A stretch of 64,000 nt of DNA, taken from IMG/VR virus record IMGVR_UViG_3300009503_000020, positions 1-64,000 of that record; one strand, written 5' to 3'. This DNA comes from a virus. Made by a program: the position numbers and the translations under genes. The notes beneath the pieces were generated by a model, which did not search any database, was not told where the DNA came from, and worked only from the letters and a program-made list of their open reading frames with translations. Each line of letters opens with the position of its first letter. Within the stretch, counting starts at the first letter, position 1. Positions 1,261 through 48,826 of this stretch are shown here, piece after piece.

Positions 1261-1957
1261 AGAGCCTGATGGCTCTATCACAGTCATCACTTCATGTGGT
1301 GACGCAGTGCAGTGAATTTCGGGTTCATTGCACTGCTACGAGGAACAGGGCATGAAATCCCATAAGTGCCCTGTCTCCGATGAAGCATGCATAGGTCTGG
1401 GTAAGCGGGACCAAAGTGGTGGCTTACCTTAGCCGATGAACCCACCAGCCACGGTAAAGTGGTTCCCCGAGATGGGGCTAAGTGGGTAAAGTGAGCACAT
1501 ATGGTGTGAACCATACGAGGCTCACTGGGGAGGTGAGAGGGAACTCACACAATTCCCGAAGGGAACACCGTCGAGGTTTACCCGAAATAAACCTCAATAG
1601 TGGAGTGGCAACCACACTAACAAAACGAATTGTGTGATTAAAGGGAAGACTTCAGCCCTCTCGAACAGACCTATGACGGGCAAATTGCATAGGAAAATAC
1701 CCGTAGAATGGGAGACCACGGGTCGACGACTAAAGACGCAAGCTCTCTCTGAGGAACATAACGTGCCCACGAAAGTGGGAAGACGAACTAACTCGGAGAG
1801 ACAATGCAACCTGAAGTCGTCAAGCCAAATCGTATTGGCAACGGGGTTCTTAACCATACTCTACAGTTCCAGCACTCCGAACCAAAAACACCACAGAGCG
1901 AAAGACACCTCTGCCCCGTTAGAGGTGATGAGGAGTGGTCTGCCTGTAGAGTTTTTT
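1261..1957 (+). ncRNA. Candidate large structured non-coding RNA (class not identified)
   Basis: More than 20 stems, including long-range perfect helices 1390-1399/1666-1675, 1545-1555/1627-1637, 1725-1731/1815-1821 and 1858-1866/1944-1952. GNRA loops (GTGA 1506, GAAA 1771) and G-U wobbles favour the + strand. Sampled 60-nt lines are 52-57% GC versus ~38% in a sampled coding line. Ends at a T6 tract. Confidence 0.8.
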
Positions 1958-1960
1958 CTG
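1952..1960 (+). terminator. Oligo-T tract closing the structured RNA
   Basis: TTTTTTCTG directly after the last helix; archaeal terminators are T-rich. Confidence 0.45.
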
Positions 1961-2024
1961 TATTCACACTTATCATATTACACCTTAGCGTCCTGGGACG
2001 CTAGGGTTCATAGGTATAGGAGGG

Positions 2025-2315
2025 ATGTGTATGGAATATAAAGGAAAGTATAGTAGAGGATGGAAACCTGTTCCTGATACCTATTGGATGTGTGAAGGTA
2101 TCTCTAAGGATGGAATATCCTTAGAGTATCTGGGAGTCATAAAGGTATCAGGAAAGGAAGTCTCGAGGGAAATGGATGAACACCAGAGTATCAAAGACTA
2201 CATGCCTTACAAGATAGCTAAACGAGTAGCTAAGGAACATTTCCCTCAAGTCAATCCTATTATAGTAACTCAAATAGGGAGGGATGTGTATGATAGGAAG
2301 AATAGAAAACCTTAG
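2025..2315 (+). CDS. Hypothetical protein
   Basis: GGAGG RBS; overlaps the next ORF. Confidence 0.55.
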   Translation: MCMEYKGKYSRGWKPVPDTYWMCEGISKDGISLEYLGVIKVSGKEVSREMDEHQSIKDYMPYKIAKRVAKEHFPQVNPIIVTQIGRDVYDRKNRKP

Positions 2316-2820
2316 GAAGATACGAGTCAGCGACATAGCATTTGCATACACACATCAGACAAGACTTGAGCCAGACAGACCTATGGTAGTCAATAGATTT
2401 CCAGAGGCAGACAGACTACACGAAGAGTACAGTAAGATTAATGGAACAATGAAGCCTGAGGACTTAGATGCAAGTCTAAGATATCTGAGTAGGTTCACTG
2501 GAAACATTCTCATCGTAGGAAGACCAGATGGCATCAGAGTAAGTAATGACACAGTAAGTCTAGTAGAGTTCAAGACAGTATGGGGTGAAGAACCTCACAT
2601 AGATACAATCAGACTAGGAATACTTCAAGTGCAATTGTATGCATGGCTGATAGAACCACACCTAAGAAGACTAGGATTCAAGCTCAGTGATGTGCATTAT
2701 GTAGAGATAATCAACAGACAGAATGGAGAACTAGTAGCAAGCATAAGAGTACCAACACTACCTAATCCTGAAGAACTCATTTGGCAGACAGTATATAACT
2801 TTCTGGATAAGGAGGAATAG
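2284..2820 (+). CDS. PD-(D/E)XK nuclease, Cas4/RecB-like
   Basis: IVGRPDG...LVEFKT...QVQLYAWL match PD-(D/E)XK motifs II/III and the QxxxY motif. Confidence 0.75.
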   Translation: MCMIGRIENLRKIRVSDIAFAYTHQTRLEPDRPMVVNRFPEADRLHEEYSKINGTMKPEDLDASLRYLSRFTGNILIVGRPDGIRVSNDTVSLVEFKTVWGEEPHIDTIRLGILQVQLYAWLIEPHLRRLGFKLSDVHYVEIINRQNGELVASIRVPTLPNPEELIWQTVYNFLDKEE

Positions 2821-2822
2821 AT

Positions 2823-3371
2823 ATGGATAGTGAAGAAGAAGGAGAACGAGAGATAGCACTTTACAGGTATAAGAACATTCCACTGTCTCTAAGACTACAC
2901 GATGGCAAGTGGTATGAAGGTTACTGTGGGATGAGACACAATGGCTTACGAGTGACTGAAGCTAAGATTATACTAGGTACTAAAGACATACCATCTCAAG
3001 ACCATCTGTTAGTTATCTTCCTACATGAACTAGGACATCTCGAAGACAAGCTACTTTTCAAGCCAGAGGACTTTGCTAAGGAAGAAGAGATGAAGTTCCT
3101 CTTCAAGCTCTTTGGTTTCTCTGAGGAGTATATTGAGTACAGATTCAAGCAGGAGATAAGTGCATGGAAGAGAGCTCTTGTCTGGTGTGTTCAGTTTGGC
3201 ATATCTTTGCAAGCATTCCTTGAAGCACTGTGTATCTGCATAAGTCCACTGAGCAAGTCACTACTGCTCAAGTTCCTTGATATGTTTAGGAAAGAGTTAG
3301 ACAGTATTCAACAAGAAGGAGGTCTGAAAAATGGAACAGAAGAAAAGAGAGAAGACGATATTCATCAATGA
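2823..3371 (+). CDS. HExxH zincin-like putative metallopeptidase
   Basis: FLHELGH followed by a downstream E (QEISAW). Confidence 0.55.
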   Translation: MDSEEEGEREIALYRYKNIPLSLRLHDGKWYEGYCGMRHNGLRVTEAKIILGTKDIPSQDHLLVIFLHELGHLEDKLLFKPEDFAKEEEMKFLFKLFGFSEEYIEYRFKQEISAWKRALVWCVQFGISLQAFLEALCICISPLSKSLLLKFLDMFRKELDSIQQEGGLKNGTEEKREDDIHQ

Positions 3372-6300
3372 CATACCTTTTCTATACCCAGAACACAATG
3401 TAGCAAGACAACTACAGATAGAAGTATGGCTTAACCCAGACATGATAGACTTAGGAGAACAGAAGCAGGTGAAGAGAGATGACCCTACTAAATACTACAT
3501 ATGCTAATGAGATGACAGTCCAAATAGGACGGATAAAAATAAAAAGAAAAGGAGGTAGAAAGAAATGAAGTGTCCTAACTGTGAATATCCGAGACTTAGA
3601 TACAATCTGAAAGTGCAGAGTGGAAAGAAACGAACAGACTTCAGTGCTGAATGTCCTAAATGTAAATGGACAGGAGAGATAGGAAATGAAAAAGAATAAG
3701 AATCCAAAGATAAAGAGATGCCACAGATGTGGAGGACTAATGGTGCAGTCTGACACAGAATGGGTCTGCTTAGGCAAGTGCAAACTACGAGAACCAAGAT
3801 TCCTCAAACCAGAGACACCATTCCTCTTCTTAAACATCAAAGCTAAGGATGAGAAGACACAGAAGTTTCTCGAAGACATAATGCAGAGACCAGAGACTGA
3901 AGTATTCAAAGACATCAAAGAGGATGGGACTGTGTTTGTCAAAGAGAGACTACCAGATGGTAGTGTAAGGATCCTTGATGTGACAACTATTCAGAAACTA
4001 TGTGACAAGATGGCTAGGGAGATAAGAGAACAATGAGATTAAAGAAATACTTGAGAGTTATCTGTTTCGGTGAACTAGCTTTTACATCTCTAATGTGGAT
4101 ATTAGTCTTCAGTGCATATCCAATAATTGAACCTAATGCCATCATAAGGAAAATAGAACAGATATTCTTTGTGGTCTTAGGAACAATTAGCCTCTACTTA
4201 GCATGGGATGAAGTAGTAAACGAAGAGTGATAATCGACAAGAGGAGAGTGGAAGACATGGAGAATGAAACAGACATTATCAACGAGAAGAACCAGAAGGT
4301 CTGTAAGTGTGGAAACAAGACATGGCTAGCTTACTTCAGTGGAATCCACTACACACTAGTTCTCAAATGCCCTAAATGCAATGCTACAGTGGAGTATGAA
4401 ATACTGGATTGGTAAGAGAGGTGAGAATAATGACAAATGAGGATGAGTTAGAGAAGATAAGCAAGACTCTTGAAGACATTCTATATCTTGTAAAGAGAGA
4501 CATTCTAGAATGCTGGAAGAAGAAGTTAAACAATGAAGAGCCTGATGTCACTTGTGAGGACTGTGACTATTCTCCAATTTGTGACCAATTCTTAAAGTGA
4601 AGATGCAAAGAGATGATGTGACATGTTATGGGCTTTCGGTCTTTATAAAAAGCCAATATACAAAGTCTATGACTGCTTAGTACGCTATAACCTTCCATGT
4701 ATTATCCAAGACTTGTTTGATGTCATTATTGACAACAACCTTCTCATTGAAGTTCTTTGGGACTTGAGAGATAGAGTCATAGAGCATATCAAATGGATTA
4801 TACATGGGAGAGTGGAAGACTAATGAAGAGAGTTAACAGAATCAAAAGACAAGTCTTGAAGAGAAAGATGACAGGAGTAATTAGATAGGAGGGAAGTGTA
4901 TGACAAAGAAACCACAGAAGTGTAAAAACATAGACGGTTGTGCAGGACTCTGTGAGAGTTGTGAACAATATCTTTCAGAGACTGAACTTCAGAGTAGAAG
5001 TAGAGGAAACTAAGATGAACAGGAAGAAAAAGTTAAAAGTCATAGCTACATTTCTTCTAATGCATGGTGGTGTATTGTTATACTGTGCTGCACCTTATGC
5101 TACAAAACCTCTCTATATTTTCCTAGTGCAACTAGCAGGACTAGGTGTAACAGTATTAGGATTCTTTACCTTCTTCAAGCAACTCTCATCTGACTGAAGG
5201 GAATTATATGACACCTGAAGATATATTTCGTGAGACATTTGCTAAGTACTGGAGTCAGATGATGGGTCAAGCATTTGCTATCATCTTCCTGATACTGTTG
5301 TTACTGATGGCCTTAGCAGGAATAGAGTTCTGGATTAAGTGGAATGAGACTAAGTTAAGATAGGAGGGTAGTCTCTTGAACAAAGACTTTACTCAGTGGT
5401 TAATGGAATTGCTTAACAAACTACAACCACAGCGTGTCTATGTAAATGCAGATGAACCTATTGTAGGCTATGTCTGGAATAACAGGAAGAAGTACCTGTA
5501 CTTCATATCTCAGAGAGAAGCAAACAAGCTTGATAGGCAACACATTGTCTGGAAACCTTTAGGAGAAGACTGGAAGTAAGAGGAGGGATAGAGATGAAGA
5601 AACAACACCCAATGATAGATGCACATTGGTATGGTATGGTAGAAGGAAGTGTTGAGACGATTGCTTCAATGGCTACTGCAATAGCTATTGTAGAACATAA
5701 CATATACCTTGTCCCTATTGCAATATTAGGTTACATTGCAGGCTTCTATATGCATAGAAAGTTTCAGAAGCTATTCAGGGAAGTGTAGAGTATGAGAATA
5801 GCAGTTGTGATTGATGCCTCTGCTTCTATAGTAGCTTTCTTGAGACTATATACTTTAGCTGAAGACCTGACAGAGATATTCTATCCACTGTCTATTGGAA
5901 TGGACATCCAGAAATTGAATGCACTAACTAAGAAGTATGATCAGGTCTACTTCTTCACTGATGGCTTGTTCCCTAAGGACGATGCTGAACTGATGATGAA
6001 CATAATCTCTAACAAGATAAAAATAATTAAGGTAGGAGGGTGGTAAGATGAACTGGAGAGCTGTTTCAGCTATAGGTGTAGATATCTGGCTAGCAACCTT
6101 CTTAATCTTGACAGAGACAGGACATGCAGGATCATTCTCCTGGTGGGTATCTCTGTTTGAGTTTGGAGTCAATGCAATAATGTGCTTTATAGCTGAAGAT
6201 AAGAAGGAGTAATACTATGTCAGACTATGATTGGATGGAACCAAAGACAGAGGAAGATGCAGTCAAGCAAGCAATTAAACGTATAGATAGACTGAACAAG

Positions 6301-43583: not shown

Positions 43584-45143
43584 ATGGAAGAAGTAAGAGA
43601 CAAGATCCTACGTCAAATAGATGAGTTGGAGAAAACCCTCTTTGGCATGAGAGATGTTATAAAGATCTACATATTAAGCAAGGCTTGTGATTTGACTGTT
43701 CTATTGTTAGGAGCACATGCAACAGCTAAGTCTGCTCTCTCAAGAATGTGGTCAATAACCACTGGTTTGAACTATAGAATAGTAACTAGTTCTGAAGTCG
43801 ATGAAAGTTTGATTGCCTACATTGACCCTGCAGTCTTTAGAGAGAAGAACATTGTTCAAATGAGGCGAGGAGAACTTATGGAGAAGAACCACATCATAGT
43901 TGATGAATACTTTTTATGGCTTAACAAGTATAGAGCTAAGCTGCACCAACTCTTGGAAGAGAAAACATATGCTGGTCTAGATTCGCTTGTTTTCACATAT
44001 ACGTTTCTCTCCAACCCCTTATCAGACTTCTATGCAGGACAGATACCAGAAATTAATATGGCTTCAATTGACAGAATAGACTTATTTGTTCCAGTTAATC
44101 AACCATCAATAGTTCCTGCAGAGACTATGATGAGGAAGTTCTCTAAATATGGTAGAAAAGAAAGACCTCTGTCTCAGATATCTACATGGGAAGATTACTT
44201 GAAGGCTAGAGAGGAAATAATGCAAGTAAAAGTCCCTTCAAAGATAATAATCTGGCTAACGCTGTTTGCTCACTCTATGGCCTCATGCAAACATGTTAAA
44301 GACAAATGGAGCCTCTCTACTGCTAAACTCAAGAAGATGTGTCTCAATTGTAATGAAGTCAATCACTTGTGTAGCAAAGTCTGCCTTTCCAAACCTAGGT
44401 TCTTAAGAGCTACAATTTTACTTTCTAAAGGACTTGCTTGGTTAAATGGAAGAGATACTGTAACATTTCAAGATATCAATGAGGCTATCCTGTACACTCT
44501 TCCTCATAGACTAGCTTGGATACAAGAAGAACTCTCATACTCAGAATCTCTTGAGAAAGTACATGAGCTAGTTCAACAATTTAATGATGACATGCTAGTC
44601 TGGAAGAACAGAGGAGTGTTTTCTCAACTAGCCAAGATAATAGAATCAAGCAAAAGTGTTCCACCTAAGTATGAAGATAAGATAGGCCAAGAACTGAGTG
44701 CAGATGTCTCAGAGATTCACATACTGAAGGAGTTCATTGCTGAAACCTTAAACTCAGTTAAAGAGGATGTTAGTAGTTACTACTTTGTAGAAGCTAGCAA
44801 TAAGACTTACAAGACACTGAAAGAACTACAGGAATTCCTAGAGAAGTCAGGACTTAGTCCTTTTGAAAGAGATGTTCTTGCATTCAAGATAAGTCCTCCT
44901 AACTTGTCTTACATAATTCCAAATAATCCTGAGAACATAGAGAAGTTAATTGACACTCTAATCAACTGGCACACAAGAGAACAAGTAACTATAGATGATA
45001 AGACAATACTTGAGAGGAAGTTCTCCGAAGCAATAATCTTTGACTCAGAACTAGTCAAGATACAAGAAGAAACAGGAAGTGCTAAGTTGCTGTTTCCAGA
45101 TGAGAAGAAAAGGAATGCATTTGTGAAACTGTGGGAGGCATAA
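43584..45143 (+). CDS. MoxR/RavA-like AAA+ ATPase
   Basis: LLGAHATAKS (variant Walker A), IIVDEY Walker B, SIDRI, and a C-terminal lid (LPHRL). Confidence 0.75.
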   Translation: MEEVRDKILRQIDELEKTLFGMRDVIKIYILSKACDLTVLLLGAHATAKSALSRMWSITTGLNYRIVTSSEVDESLIAYIDPAVFREKNIVQMRRGELMEKNHIIVDEYFLWLNKYRAKLHQLLEEKTYAGLDSLVFTYTFLSNPLSDFYAGQIPEINMASIDRIDLFVPVNQPSIVPAETMMRKFSKYGRKERPLSQISTWEDYLKAREEIMQVKVPSKIIIWLTLFAHSMASCKHVKDKWSLSTAKLKKMCLNCNEVNHLCSKVCLSKPRFLRATILLSKGLAWLNGRDTVTFQDINEAILYTLPHRLAWIQEELSYSESLEKVHELVQQFNDDMLVWKNRGVFSQLAKIIESSKSVPPKYEDKIGQELSADVSEIHILKEFIAETLNSVKEDVSSYYFVEASNKTYKTLKELQEFLEKSGLSPFERDVLAFKISPPNLSYIIPNNPENIEKLIDTLINWHTREQVTIDDKTILERKFSEAIIFDSELVKIQEETGSAKLLFPDEKKRNAFVKLWEA

Positions 45144-45144
45144 C

Positions 45145-45633
45145 ATGTCAACTACTCCTCAAGATATAGAGAAGAAGTTTCCTGAAGTTTATGGCTATTC
45201 TATAAAGAAGGAGAGGAAAGAACAGGTAACCATAAAAGGAATTTCTCTTGAGATAAAGAAGTATACAACTACACTTAAGACAGGTGGAATTAGAGTCTCA
45301 CTTATAGACAACACTAGTGAGTTCTTTCTCAAGTACAATGAGTACCTTGCATCTATAGAGAGTTTTAGACCTGCAGAAGAGAAAGCAATGAACATGTGGT
45401 CTTTCACTACTCTGTGCACAGCAGATCCAAGTCTAGAAGAGATGGGAGGAGCAGGGTTCTATGTGTATCAGAATCACCTTGTGTTCAATGAAGAAGAGAA
45501 GAGTGCTCCTCCTATAGATAGACTTACTAAGTTTATAGAACACTACAAGAAGAAGTTTGGTATTAGAACAAGACTCAAGGAAGATGATTTCTCAGACTTG
45601 GATGTTCTAGAGAGGACAACAGAGAATGAATAA
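45145..45633 (+). CDS. Hypothetical protein in the MoxR operon
   Basis: Coupled between the ATPase and the peptidase genes. Confidence 0.6.
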   Translation: MSTTPQDIEKKFPEVYGYSIKKERKEQVTIKGISLEIKKYTTTLKTGGIRVSLIDNTSEFFLKYNEYLASIESFRPAEEKAMNMWSFTTLCTADPSLEEMGGAGFYVYQNHLVFNEEEKSAPPIDRLTKFIEHYKKKFGIRTRLKEDDFSDLDVLERTTENE

Positions 45634-47449
45634 GGAACTAATTACTAAGAAGAATTTCAACAAGATAGCTAAGAGATTAGAGGAACTGCAAGTACGCAGT
45701 TGGAAGATGTCTAGACCTATATTCCCTAAGATGACTCTATACTTCAAAGTATTTCCTATAGAATCATATTTCTCTACTGTAGGTCAGATCTGGTGGGTCA
45801 CACCTTACTGGAGAGGAGATGCTTTTGCTCTCTCTATTTTGTTCCATGAAGGACATCACTGGAACATCTATCCACTAGATATATTTAGAGCTATCAAAGA
45901 TATCTTTGAAGCTAGAAGACTTCTTGCTGAGGAGATAGGATTCGTACCTGAGAAAATCCAGAAGTCTCTTTGGAGAGTAGAAGAAGACTGGAGTCAGTTT
46001 GCATACTCTACAGCTGAACTTCAGTTCGTTGAAAATATTCTCGGAGATTACTGTCTTGAAGGAACGACAAAGATCCTACTCCCTGGTGGTGCAGAAAAAG
46101 AAATCAGAGAGATAAAAGAAGGAGATATAATCCTAGGAGTAAGAAATGGAAAAGTGGTACCTACTCGGGTCTTAGGGATTGGGAAAACTCTTCACACTGA
46201 AATAATTGAATTCAGAGATGGAAAACGCCATTTAGTCACCTCCCCTGAACATAAAATTTTTTCTTATCCAGACTTTCAACTTAAACTAGCAAAAGAGTTT
46301 AATAATGAGAGTGTTTACTATTACTTGGATGATAAACTTGGGCAAAAGAACCTGGACAGAAGAACAGATACAATTCCTGAAGGAAAATTATCCGAAGATG
46401 ACAGCAAAAGAAATAGCAGCAAGACTAGGAAAAACAGTTCACAGTGTTCAAGGCTATGTTTACCTTCACGTAGATACTCTCTCCAAGCGAGAACTCTCAA
46501 GAAAAAGATGCCACCAGATAGTCACTTCATTTACAGAAACGGAGAAAGCTTATATTGCTGGAATTGTCGATGGGGAAGGAACGATTACGATCGTGGGAAA
46601 GAAATATCGACAACCAATGATATCAATATCCAACACTTCTTTCCTTCTCAAAGAATATTTCGAACGACTTGGCTTTCAAACTCGAGTGAAGACAAATTGG
46701 GCAGGAACAGAATACTTCTCACTTTACATAACAGGGCAACACAATATCAGAGAATTCCTAGTTGCTATCAAAGATTACTTAGTAATCAAGAAGGAACATG
46801 CCCAACTCTTGCTGCAGTGGTTAGAACTGAAAGCTCAACAGAAGGTTCATGGCAAAGACACTCCTCAAATGGAGGAACTATTCAAACGCTTGAAACTTTT
46901 GAACTCAAGACATCCACATTTAAGGTTATCAGAAAGAAAAAAACTGATCCAGTAATTCTCTATGATCTAAAAACTTCAACCGGTTCATTCTTTGCTAACA
47001 GGATTCTAGTCCACAATTGTGTGAATTTACATATACATGACAACTATCCTCTAGTGTGGAATGATCTCTGGCATTTCCTCTCAGTTGAAGGTACATTTTA
47101 TGAGAAAGAGAAAGCACTCAAGAGAGACACTACTTTCCTGTTATACTTAGCAGTCTATCCAGAGCTAATTCCAGGTTTAGAACAGATACCAGTCAAAGAG
47201 AAAGTTTCTGAAGAGAAGATACCTAAGATAGCTCACATTGTTAAACTATGTAAAGAAGGAAGGATTTCTACTCCCTATGCTATTAAAGAGCTAGCTAAGT
47301 TATTCCATGACAATATCCAACAGGATCTCAAAGAAGCAGAAGGAGAAGGGAAAGAAGGAGATTTCAAATGCCCCAAATGCCACTCAGATGAAGGGTGGGA
47401 GATAGTCTCATACTTTGATGAACAGAAAGGAAAGTGGTTAGATGTCTGA
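45626..47449 (+). CDS. Intein-containing HExxH putative metallopeptidase (DUF2201-N-like)
   Basis: LFHEGHH. Spliced junction ENILGDY|CVN parallels NVAVDAAVN in the 11428 protein. C-terminal CPKC. Confidence 0.7.
   Translation: MNKELITKKNFNKIAKRLEELQVRSWKMSRPIFPKMTLYFKVFPIESYFSTVGQIWWVTPYWRGDAFALSILFHEGHHWNIYPLDIFRAIKDIFEARRLLAEEIGFVPEKIQKSLWRVEEDWSQFAYSTAELQFVENILGDYCLEGTTKILLPGGAEKEIREIKEGDIILGVRNGKVVPTRVLGIGKTLHTEIIEFRDGKRHLVTSPEHKIFSYPDFQLKLAKEFNNESVYYYLDDKLGQKNLDRRTDTIPEGKLSEDDSKRNSSKTRKNSSQCSRLCLPSRRYSLQARTLKKKMPPDSHFIYRNGESLYCWNCRWGRNDYDRGKEISTTNDINIQHFFPSQRIFRTTWLSNSSEDKLGRNRILLTLHNRATQYQRIPSCYQRLLSNQEGTCPTLAAVVRTESSTEGSWQRHSSNGGTIQTLETFELKTSTFKVIRKKKTDPVILYDLKTSTGSFFANRILVHNCVNLHIHDNYPLVWNDLWHFLSVEGTFYEKEKALKRDTTFLLYLAVYPELIPGLEQIPVKEKVSEEKIPKIAHIVKLCKEGRISTPYAIKELAKLFHDNIQQDLKEAEGEGKEGDFKCPKCHSDEGWEIVSYFDEQKGKWLDV
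46052..47017 (+). mobile_element. Intein (322 aa) with out-of-frame homing endonuclease
   Basis: Block A CLEGTTKILL, block B TSPEHKIF, block F YDLKT..FFAN, block G VHN followed by C. Reading frame is open throughout. Confidence 0.9.
46305..46955 (+). CDS. LAGLIDADG endonuclease with N-terminal HTH, nested in the +1 frame of the intein
   Basis: YIAGIVDGEGTI motif; WTEEQIQFLKENY..EIAARLGKT HTH; LVIKKEHA C-terminus. Confidence 0.85.
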   Translation: MRVFTITWMINLGKRTWTEEQIQFLKENYPKMTAKEIAARLGKTVHSVQGYVYLHVDTLSKRELSRKRCHQIVTSFTETEKAYIAGIVDGEGTITIVGKKYRQPMISISNTSFLLKEYFERLGFQTRVKTNWAGTEYFSLYITGQHNIREFLVAIKDYLVIKKEHAQLLLQWLELKAQQKVHGKDTPQMEELFKRLKLLNSRHPHLRLSERKKLIQ

Positions 47450-47844
47450 AGAGTTTGAGTTCATTACTGAATGTCCCAAGTGTAAGCAGATAGTAACTGT
47501 AAGACGCATATTCTCTAAAGCAAAGTGTCCCTACTGTGGGTATAAGTTTGAACCAAAGATGCTAGCTGCAAGGAAAGCTTTCAACCCGTCTCTAAGGAGG
47601 AAAGAGAATGTCTAGAACATCTCTGAAATGTCCTAAATGTGGCTATCCTTTAAAGCCTCAAATCAGAACTAGATTAGGAGATCCTTTTGAAGTACCATTC
47701 AGGTGTGAACATTGCAATACAACTTGGATATGGCACAGTTGGCAAGAATACTATGAGAGTTGTTTCTTTGAAGATCTAGTTAGATTTGTGACTAAGAATT
47801 TTAATCCATCAATAAAGGGGAGTACTTTAAAACATGAAAGTTAG
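47442..47844 (+). CDS. Two small zinc-ribbon ORFs (47442-47615, 47608-47844)
   Basis: CPKC..CPYC and CPKC..CEHC; they overlap each other and the flanking genes. Confidence 0.6.
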
Positions 47845-48826
47845 AATAAAATGCAAGAACTGTGGTTACACTTGGGAAACTGATTTGCAACTTAGTCCAC
47901 TTGGGAGTCTTAAACCAGGCAAGAAAGGACCACTCTCAAGAATCAAGATAGACAAAGGCTCTCTAGATAAAATACTTGACATTGCTGCAGGAGCTTCTAG
48001 AGATGACCTAGAGAAATTAGGATTAGAGATAGACATAGAGGAATGGGAAGATGCTGTGGAGAGGCTAGCTCTTAGGAAATTCCTTCTTGAAAATTTAAGA
48101 GTATGTAGAGAAAAGAAACAGAAAACAGGAGAGAAGTATGTAGTAGGTACTGAACCGTTTGTTATGGGAGATAGTTTCAAGGATGTTGACATCCCGTCAA
48201 GTGAAGTGAAGAGTCTTGGTGTAGAAGACTTGAGAATGATACCAGGAGTTACTCTCCAAAAGAAGGTATATAGTATAACAAGAGGAAGAGATGAAGAAGA
48301 GCTAAAAGGTATTAAGTGCTTTGTGATTATAGATGGTAGTGGATCTATGATAACTGGGAAAGGACTCACATTCTCTGGAGGCAAGATAGGCAAAGCTCTC
48401 CTAATAGGGAAAGAGATCTATGAGATAACTAAGAAATTTGGATTTGATTATCAGCTTGCACTCTTCTCTGATGCAGGTGTGAGAGTGCCAAAGGAGAAAC
48501 TTAGAGAGTTCTGGGCTGATGCTAGTGAGAGAGCTAACTACAGGATATGGAATGGAGGTACAAGATTACAACGAGGCTTGGAACAGTTTACTGAGCAAGA
48601 ATACAGGGATGCTAACTTGATAGTTATCTCAGACATGGACTTAGGAGACTTCCAAGAAACTAAAGATGAGATCCTTAAGATATCTAAACTAACAAATAGC
48701 TTCAAGATAATTATAATAGAGACTCAAGACATAGACTTAGTTGAAAGAGAGAAGCAAGTGCGTGAGATATTTCCACCTGAAGCTCAATTGCAGATAATGG
48801 TAATACCTTTATCTGAAGGAAGTTAA
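47834..48826 (+). CDS. VWA-domain protein
   Basis: MIDAS IIDGSGSM, GGT and ISDMD; N-terminal CKNC. Confidence 0.85.
   Translation: MKVRIKCKNCGYTWETDLQLSPLGSLKPGKKGPLSRIKIDKGSLDKILDIAAGASRDDLEKLGLEIDIEEWEDAVERLALRKFLLENLRVCREKKQKTGEKYVVGTEPFVMGDSFKDVDIPSSEVKSLGVEDLRMIPGVTLQKKVYSITRGRDEEELKGIKCFVIIDGSGSMITGKGLTFSGGKIGKALLIGKEIYEITKKFGFDYQLALFSDAGVRVPKEKLREFWADASERANYRIWNGGTRLQRGLEQFTEQEYRDANLIVISDMDLGDFQETKDEILKISKLTNSFKIIIIETQDIDLVEREKQVREIFPPEAQLQIMVIPLSEGS

Follow-up and report, generated by a model that had tools for sequence, protein, structure and literature searches.

A probable dual-coding mobile element in a virus: a mini-intein with a LAGLIDADG endonuclease gene in its +1 frame

In 1998 Gorbalenya reportedly described inteins whose endonuclease genes overlap them in another frame or lie antisense to them, with a cyanobacterial DnaX intein as a case in point. 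Here we consider a locus of a hot-spring virus with an endonuclease in an overlapping frame. It lies in positions 1 to 64,000 of the IMG/VR virus record IMGVR_UViG_3300009503_000020 (hereafter the window, by which we mean this whole stretch of 64,000 nucleotides), where the gene for a HExxH-motif protein is interrupted by an intein at 46,052 to 47,017, and where the intein in turn contains, on the same strand and in the +1 frame, an open reading frame (ORF) for a LAGLIDADG endonuclease. We think it very likely that this is a real dual-coding mobile element, namely a class-1 mini-intein overprinted at +1 with a separate gene for its homing endonuclease.

The initial annotation of this DNA had pointed to reports of out-of-frame endonucleases in some phage inteins, and such precedents do exist in published papers. 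For instance, actinobacteriophage inteins carry antisense LAGLIDADG and Vsr genes as well as an endonuclease VII-like gene in what is termed frame 3; invasion of the intein by a free-standing endonuclease gene is proposed for these cases, and continued mobility is reported (Gosselin, Arsenault and Gogarten, bioRxiv 10.1101/2025.01.02.630785). For the cyanobacterial dnaX intein a disordered in-frame middle, an overlapping LAGLIDADG ORF, a frame-dependent ratio of nonsynonymous to synonymous substitution rates (dN/dS) and coexisting alleles have been described (Phillips, DeSimone and Gogarten, bioRxiv 10.64898/2026.09.14.751524). We set out below what the window contains, how its relatives are arranged, and in which respects the locus resembles or departs from these and other described systems.

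Two reading frames across one intein

That the intein frame stays open for 322 codons had been noticed in the initial annotation, and the coordinates given there proved exact: the frame contains no stop, against 31 in the third frame. An endonuclease gene placed at +1 can create a stop in the host frame solely where one of its codons ends in T and the next begins with AA, AG or GA, so that each possible host-frame stop reads T/AA, T/AG or T/GA with the T at an endonuclease wobble position; since NNT and NNC encode the same amino acid in every codon box, host-frame stops can all be removed while the endonuclease protein is left as it is. In a +2 arrangement, an ATG before an A-starting codon for Ile, Met, Thr, Asn or Lys would give a TGA that cannot be removed, and the endonuclease contains three such spots, where Met is followed by Ile or Thr. 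At the at-risk junctions of the endonuclease gene T is found at the wobble position in 0 of 59 cases, compared with 46 of 156 at the other junctions of the same gene; in the genome's other 62 long ORFs the at-risk junctions carry T in 2218 of 7270 cases (30.5%), the lowest single gene standing at 11.9%. If the endonuclease protein is kept as it is and its codons follow the usage of the genome, some 16 stops would be expected in the intein frame, and the probability of an open frame is about 9e-10. The intein frame is open far beyond chance, and stops are kept out of it by codon choice in the endonuclease gene.

One might object that a canonical intein with an in-frame LAGLIDADG endonuclease has been displaced by two compensating indel errors of sequencing or assembly. 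The window does derive from a metagenome assembly, and a frame switch near 46,305 and back near 46,955 would give an in-frame endonuclease. The check for such indels proposed in the initial annotation was made with Logan contigs aligned to the gene. These came from X1, the source run, from X2, another hot-spring run, and from the sediment runs X3 and X4, which cover the gene in part, and in the contigs of these four separate runs no indel in the gene, compensating or otherwise, was found. Furthermore, a wrongly read frame would hold about 16 stops where none is observed, about 35 independent loci show the same +1 layout, and the endonuclease ORF has a stop codon and an ATG of its own, the latter 5 codons past a stop in its own frame. 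The endonuclease is also of the single-motif, free-standing type, whereas inteins usually carry the double-motif type. We therefore attach next to no weight to an artefact.

Contigs of X1 (1347 nucleotides) and X4 were also noted that share with the stretch only the 18-mers at 46,283 to 46,300 and 47,411 to 47,428, in the same order, at a similar spacing of 1194 as against 1128 nucleotides, and with unrelated sequence between them; these contigs may represent a diverged variant of the region.

Alternatively, the two frames might be joined during translation by programmed frameshifting, +1 near 46,305 and -1 near 46,940, to yield a canonical fusion of Hint, endonuclease and Hint. A run of seven A residues (A7) at 46,937 to 46,943, 12 nucleotides ahead of the endonuclease stop, falls where the endonuclease tail overlaps the C-terminal Hint half. 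A -1 slip there would bring ribosomes from the endonuclease frame into the intein frame, and runs of seven or more A are rare, with 6 on this strand of the 120.7-kb genome. Frameshifting, however, would not select for a stop-free frame 0 over 216 codons, a constraint that is both extreme and universal in the family, and the 5' junction shows no evident slippery site. In nearly all of the 21 loci compared below the endonuclease ATG comes directly after an in-frame stop, and because relatives rich in guanine and cytosine (GC-rich) are without the A7 run, its occurrence in the window is probably chance. We regard programmed frameshifting as very unlikely.

The intein frame itself reads as that of a splicing protein. 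The junction codons are TGT (Cys1) at 46,052 to 46,054, CAC AAT (His-Asn) at 47,012 to 47,017 and TGT (Cys+1) at 47,018 to 47,020; Cys1, Thr308, His321 and Asn322 are invariant across 21 related inteins and His67 nearly so, and the block F/G sequence YDLKT...ANRILVHN agrees with the family consensus VYDLxTxxGxYxANGxLVHN. In an AlphaFold2 (AF2) model of the in-frame product, made with an alignment of 20 related inteins, the two predicted Hint halves (Table 1) jointly match Hint structures with Z of 19-20 and a root-mean-square deviation of 1.4-2.3 A over about 133 aligned residues, the hedgehog Hint domain, the NpuDnaB mini-intein and the Mtu RecA mini-intein being among the matches. The in-frame middle, which the initial annotation had read as low-complexity filler, is indeed predicted to be without structure, the predicted local distance difference test score (pLDDT) being below 50 at residues 99-236 and 251-281. 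In the related inteins conservation of this linker in the intein frame is absent except for the shadow of the endonuclease DGEG motif. The in-frame product thus models as a Hint domain interrupted by about 185 disordered residues. A split intein or fractured gene was considered and ruled out, the host gene being a single ORF of 607 codons without a stop.

The +1 frame, for its part, was said in the initial annotation to encode a helix-turn-helix (HTH) plus a single-motif LAGLIDADG protein, and both elements were recovered: its product scores 24.4 bits against the Pfam family LAGLIDADG_3 (cut-off 22.5) and has an HTH-like head in its AF2 model, the mean pLDDT of which is 84.6. A homologue search found the HTH-like motif, of about 40 amino acids, in up to 10 tandem copies in other proteins, and the module matches PHROG entries for transcriptional regulators. 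Among 23 homologues Y83, D89, G90 and G92 are invariant and E91 is nearly so. Foldseek recovers in the model the alpha-beta-beta-alpha-beta-beta-alpha core fold of LAGLIDADG enzymes and aligns it with I-CreI, I-CvuI and I-MsoI at a probability of 1.0 and template modelling (TM) scores, relative to the target, of 0.64-0.68.

A prediction with two copies of the endonuclease scored 0.78, against 0.00 for the best control, with the runs agreeing on at least 66% of contacts and a partner pLDDT of at least 77, which counts as a pass; when the tool was calibrated, 20 of 30 proteins with pair structures and 1 of 23 with single-chain structures passed. The predicted dimer is symmetric, and its interface consists of residues 78-91, the LAGLIDADG helix. 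The +1 product hence models as an I-CreI-like single-motif LAGLIDADG endonuclease forming a symmetric homodimer, with the proviso that the dimer result may be a memory of solved I-CreI dimers.

Table 1. Features of the intein-bearing host gene and of the second intein (window positions)
Feature	Position	Strand	Description
Host gene	45626..47449	+	607-aa precursor ORF; 285 aa once spliced; HExxH motif, C-terminal zinc ribbon
Intein	46052..47017	+	322 codons; class-1 signatures: Cys1, block B S-P-E-H (His67), block F/G ...YDLKT...VHN, then Cys+1
N-terminal half of Hint fold	46052..46336	+	Intein residues 1-95; AF2 pLDDT 88-97
Shine-Dalgarno-like AAGAG	46293..46297	+	Weak; 7 nt 5' of endonuclease ATG
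Endonuclease gene	46305..46955	+	+1 frame; 216 aa; ATG start, TAA stop; covers intein codons 85-301
HTH-like three-helix module	46344..46469	+	Endonuclease residues 14-55; helices 19-28, 34-41, 45-74 in model
In-frame linker	46346..46894	+	Intein residues 99-281; predicted disordered, pLDDT 35-58; shadow of endonuclease gene
LAGLIDADG motif Y-I-A-G-I-V-D-G-E-G	46551..46580	+	Endonuclease residues 83-92; acidic catalytic residues; predicted dimer interface
C-terminal half of Hint fold	46898..47017	+	Intein residues 283-322, ends His-Asn; pLDDT 73-96
Cys+1	47018..47020	+	First C-extein residue, splicing nucleophile; Leu in intein-less alleles
Second intein	62963..63928	+	322 codons in DHH/RecJ-like ORF 62546-64519 (extends past window end); Intein_splicing E 5.7e-16
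HNH endonuclease ORF of second intein	63243..63842	+	+1 frame; above Pfam HNH cut-off; preceded by strong GAGGAG

Presence, absence and selection by frame

The intein and its endonuclease are, as one unit, precisely present or absent between close relatives. A related IMG/VR virus of 156 kb (G001, locus L002) keeps the gene order, and its host gene, which encodes a homologue of 285 amino acids at 61-68% identity, is without exactly the 966-nucleotide intein. The same is seen within a single sediment sample: the dominant population of run X3 (contig depth about 100) is intein-less, with 982 bases skipped and 16 others in their place, a net loss of exactly 966, and a minor contig of the same run, at a depth of 4.7, bears the endonuclease region. 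Such coexisting alleles are as expected for an element still in play. Written with a slash at the insertion point, the junctions read GDY/intein/CVNLH here, GDY/LINWH in L002 and GDY/LVNTW in X3; the five codons directly 3' of that point, Cys+1 among them, differ between intein-bearing and intein-free alleles, and beyond these five the flanks are nearly identical. At the presumed target, in the L002 and X3 alleles, the best dyad symmetry amounts to 8 of 11 matches and is off-centre. G001 is also without the second intein of the window.

A free-standing LAGLIDADG gene was observed elsewhere in G001 (within locus L197, 100959-106246), and its product is 35% identical to the core of the window endonuclease.

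The X3 variant of the endonuclease region provides a first view of selection, since its ten substitutions divide into 6 silent and 2 replacing changes (V to L and N to S) in the endonuclease frame and 1 silent and 7 replacing changes in the intein frame; they include a four-base change, CTC TCA to CTG AGC, that keeps Leu-Ser by way of a TCA to AGC serine switch. Two more distant relatives, L003 and L004, at 73% nucleotide identity, differ by 61 synonymous and 54 replacing codons in the endonuclease frame (74% amino acid identity), by 16 and 110 in the intein frame (47% amino acid identity) and by 20 and 104 in the third frame. The endonuclease frame is under purifying selection. Since most substitutions in relatives and variants leave the endonuclease residue as it was but alter the intein-frame residue, the middle of the intein frame is kept only stop-free, and over the greater part of the overlap its residues change as they would in a non-coding frame.

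The earlier proposal that both frames are under selection therefore stood for the endonuclease frame (61 versus 54) and had to be narrowed for the intein frame (16 versus 110), in which most of the overlap is merely held open and true double constraint is confined to the ends. The endonuclease ORF covers intein codons 85-301, of which those from about codon 283 onward also encode the structured C-terminal Hint half; double constraint concerns about 18 codons there, at the 3' end, and a few codons at the 5' end.

Relatives, host gene and second intein

Homologues of the endonuclease number 3355 at E <= 1e-3. The five nearest protein-database relatives (L003, L004/L005, L008, L009 and L010, with GC contents of 0.33-0.67) all have the +1 layout, the endonuclease lying at +1 within the open intein of a DUF2201 (metallopeptidase-like plus VWA) gene at the junction ...VHN/CD[FY]A[IV]N. 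Among metagenome loci gathered with an alignment of the endonuclease family, 22 of 80 have this layout, with 0 stops in the host frame as against 8-37 in the other frame, and with host ORFs of 466-844 amino acids; the +1 layout is also present in 14 of 71 IMG/VR viral loci, some of which are duplicates of the metagenome loci. The overprinted loci range in GC content from 0.24 to 0.67, and the endonuclease is always at +1 and in none of them at +2. Judged from these sequences, the +1 layout recurs at about 35 metagenomic or viral loci and in several host genes. In the cellular GTDB species representatives, a single open frame, at -1, was encountered in the best 80 of 255 endonuclease matches (L168, GC 0.67), and this one is probably chance. 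A single-sequence scan of viral contigs with the endonuclease gave no match, in contrast to the alignment-based scan which did find loci, and a word-based search with the intein region returned the window's own protein alone.

When the host ORF of the window was aligned with those of 20 relatives, Cys1 and the terminal His-Asn were present in all 21 and the first C-extein residue was Cys or Ser in 20, the lone exception being Val in L029. The 20 related inteins measure 292-397 amino acids and end in [VTC]HN, the C-terminal Hint block cited above is common to the family, and Pfam Intein_splicing is found in 17 of the 21 members at E <= 1e-3. The endonuclease start is nearly always an ATG, at intein codon 66-102 in most of the 21 loci, and its stop lies 3-35 codons before the intein end. 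The host families include DUF2201_N (7 loci), GT1 glycosyltransferases (7, at EAMA/CG.P), P-loop NTPases (at GxxGxGK/S) and a DegT aminotransferase. The intein and its endonuclease move together, as a unit that is retained at endonuclease identities as low as about 30% and is present in several host genes, and the window element very probably belongs to a virus-borne lineage of these units.

A quick tree was built from 74 endonucleases, and on it the overprinted state requires 7 changes, compared with 22.4 when labels are shuffled, and 0 of 500 shuffles were as low. The window endonuclease falls in a clade of 13 overprinted and 2 free-standing genes, with 94 in the Shimodaira-Hasegawa-like approximate likelihood-ratio test (SH-aLRT); flanking split-intein halves were looked for around the free-standing endonucleases inside the overprinted clade (L021 and L022) and none were seen. 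The overprinted state is thus strongly clustered on this quick tree, on which monophyly is not established, and a single origin may be envisaged.

We also entertain, at what we judge to be even chances, a large and mainly virus-borne lineage in which a mini-intein and a +1 HTH-LAGLIDADG gene have hopped as one unit, always at +1, among at least five host gene families (DUF2201-type genes, GT1 glycosyltransferases, P-loop NTPases, DegT aminotransferase and the HExxH protein of the window). If this were true, overprinting would be a stable, evolved form of carriage for a homing endonuclease rather than a short-lived accident, its stability arising from the cost-free clearing of stops by NNT-to-NNC changes and from the uncoupling of nuclease dose from host-protein synthesis, and it would be far more frequent among viral inteins than one would gather from published examples, which are few.

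One locus of a different make-up was noted among the viral relatives: in IMG/VR 3300044712_002337 (L173) the ORF at 1675-4794, of the DUF2201 type and 1040 amino acids long, has two ...HN/C junctions and so two inteins in one gene, one of them with an overprinted endonuclease.

The window itself contains a second intein with an HNH endonuclease ORF at +1 (Table 1). T is found at none of the 77 at-risk junctions of this ORF and at 42 of the 121 others, with a probability of about 2e-10, and the N-terminal halves of the two window inteins are 31% identical. The two closest HNH relatives that were looked up (P0160 and P0162) are free-standing genes whose other frames contain 13-45 stops, and overprinted HNH genes were not sought beyond these.

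According to Pfam the host gene of the first intein is flanked by a MoxR-like AAA ATPase gene (43,584 to 45,143) and a VWA-domain gene (47,834 to 48,826). In order, the module at 43,584 to 48,826 consists of the MoxR-like AAA ATPase, a 162-amino-acid ORF, the HExxH host protein, two small zinc-ribbon ORFs and the VWA-domain protein, and the same gene order is conserved in G001. When the extein was compared with DUF2201_N (PF13203), the intein-less homologue had no Pfam match at E <= 1, and hhalign gave the host protein a probability of 0.3; likeness to DUF2201_N is limited to the HExxH context, an N[IV]xxD[YF]x[VI]N-like motif and the MoxR and VWA neighbours. Among the relatives, insertion points differ within one conserved motif, being WN[IV]A/CD[FY]AIN in most DUF2201 genes (L011, L013, L014, L017, L020 and L023) and WNIACD/CAIN in L012. 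The NILGDY/CVN of the window could be a third insertion point in a DUF2201-type motif, 3 codons from the DUF2201 point, which we offer as a conjecture because the host extein shows no significant homology to DUF2201_N.

A proposed homing cycle and its place among known systems

If the element works as we propose, frame-0 translation of the host messenger RNA would give a precursor of N-extein, Hint-N, a disordered linker of about 185 amino acids, Hint-C and C-extein, in which the Hint halves would fold together and splice by the class-1 route (Cys1, His-Asn, Cys+1) to leave the 285-amino-acid host protein. Internal initiation at the ATG at 46,305 would yield the 216-amino-acid protein, with its HTH-like module and single LAGLIDADG motif, which would dimerise like I-CreI. 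The dimer would cut the intein-less allele of a co-infecting genome around GGAGATTAT^CTAGTTAAC, and recombinational repair would copy the intein together with the endonuclease gene into the cut allele.

Several points weigh against this reading. Block B of the intein carries Ser where Thr is usual, and the Pfam Intein_splicing score, at 20.9-23 bits, is under the gathering cut-off of 35.8. The Shine-Dalgarno-like AAGAG ahead of the endonuclease ATG is weak, for which reason independent initiation there is a matter of inference; GAGG- or AGGAG-type sites are common before genes of this genome. The sequencing runs listed with this stretch include no RNA run. Pooled over the 21 loci, T occurs at 0 of 1245 at-risk junctions against 897 of 3673 elsewhere, a figure that is descriptive in that the surveyed loci were chosen for zero stops, the real signal being the split between loci with no stops and loci with many. 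Lastly, a first out-of-frame insertion would have had to survive some 16 expected stops.

The weak Shine-Dalgarno-like site and the weak Pfam intein score might also be taken to mean that the element is half dead, either an inactive endonuclease remnant in a working mini-intein or a non-splicing intein that is merely tolerated, and the theory of the homing cycle does expect decay once an element is fixed. Such decay sits poorly with an intact endonuclease ORF and a conserved catalytic motif, with purifying selection on the endonuclease in both close and distant relatives, with intein-free and intein-bearing alleles side by side in run X3, and with the retention of all splicing residues and of what is confidently modelled as a Hint fold. 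A half-dead element is in our view improbable.

With respect to origin, it is plausible that a free-standing endonuclease gene invaded a mini-intein, in which case the invasion would be ancient. A split-intein stage is one possibility for the passage of the first insertion (Dassa et al. 2009, PMC2677866).

The locus matters in several ways. Automatic annotation misses nested genes of this kind or truncates the host gene, and several database relatives have been called in just this fashion. The element provides a clean natural example of a frame constrained only to stay open, by a simple rule that can be checked, and the approximately 35 loci, spread over different host genes, are relevant to the acquisition of nucleases by inteins ("splicing first, nuclease later") and to the movement of inteins into new genes. 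Possible tools include a compact, I-CreI-like hot-spring endonuclease with a defined natural target and an intein that tolerates a disordered insert of 185 residues, both of them predicted.

As for known systems, the endonuclease shares its fold, its single LAGLIDADG helix and, by prediction, a symmetric dimer formed through that helix with I-CreI, I-MsoI and I-CvuI, but these sit in group I introns, whereas the window enzyme has an extra HTH-like module, is nested in an intein and is 15-23% identical to them. Fractured genes likewise have an endonuclease gene of the free-standing type in the endonuclease slot of an intein, with its 3' end overlapping the C-terminal intein; there, however, the host is split into two trans-splicing ORFs (Dassa et al. 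2009, PMC2677866), while the host gene of the window is one uninterrupted ORF with 0 stops. The ShiLan domain of a phage methylase resembles our locus in being a stop-free insertion in the host frame with an endonuclease (HNH) in another frame and a sporadic distribution, yet it has no splicing domain and is not an intein, in contrast to the complete Hint fold predicted here and the full set of splice-junction residues (Arsenault et al., Genes 2025, PMC11855218).

The inteins of actinobacteriophages also have endonucleases coded outside the intein frame, but that account is without a same-strand LAGLIDADG and has HNH only in frame, whereas the window has both a +1 LAGLIDADG and a +1 HNH (bioRxiv 10.1101/2025.01.02.630785). 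The dnaX intein shares with ours the confidently modelled Hint halves, the predicted disorder of the in-frame middle, the same-strand overlapping LAGLIDADG ORF, frame-dependent selection and alleles with and without the intein (bioRxiv 10.64898/2026.09.14.751524). Unlike dnaX, the host here is a viral HExxH protein encoded beside MoxR and VWA genes and the family occupies several host genes; the endonuclease differs too, in that it has one LAGLIDADG motif, as in I-CreI, begins with an HTH-like module and is predicted to form a homodimer. The principle of an overprinted endonuclease is therefore already published, and what is gained here is breadth and not kind. New are the host gene, a single-motif HTH-LAGLIDADG family that spans several host genes and is always at +1, a same-strand +1 HNH in a true intein of the same genome, and a natural polymorphism of alleles with and without the intein.

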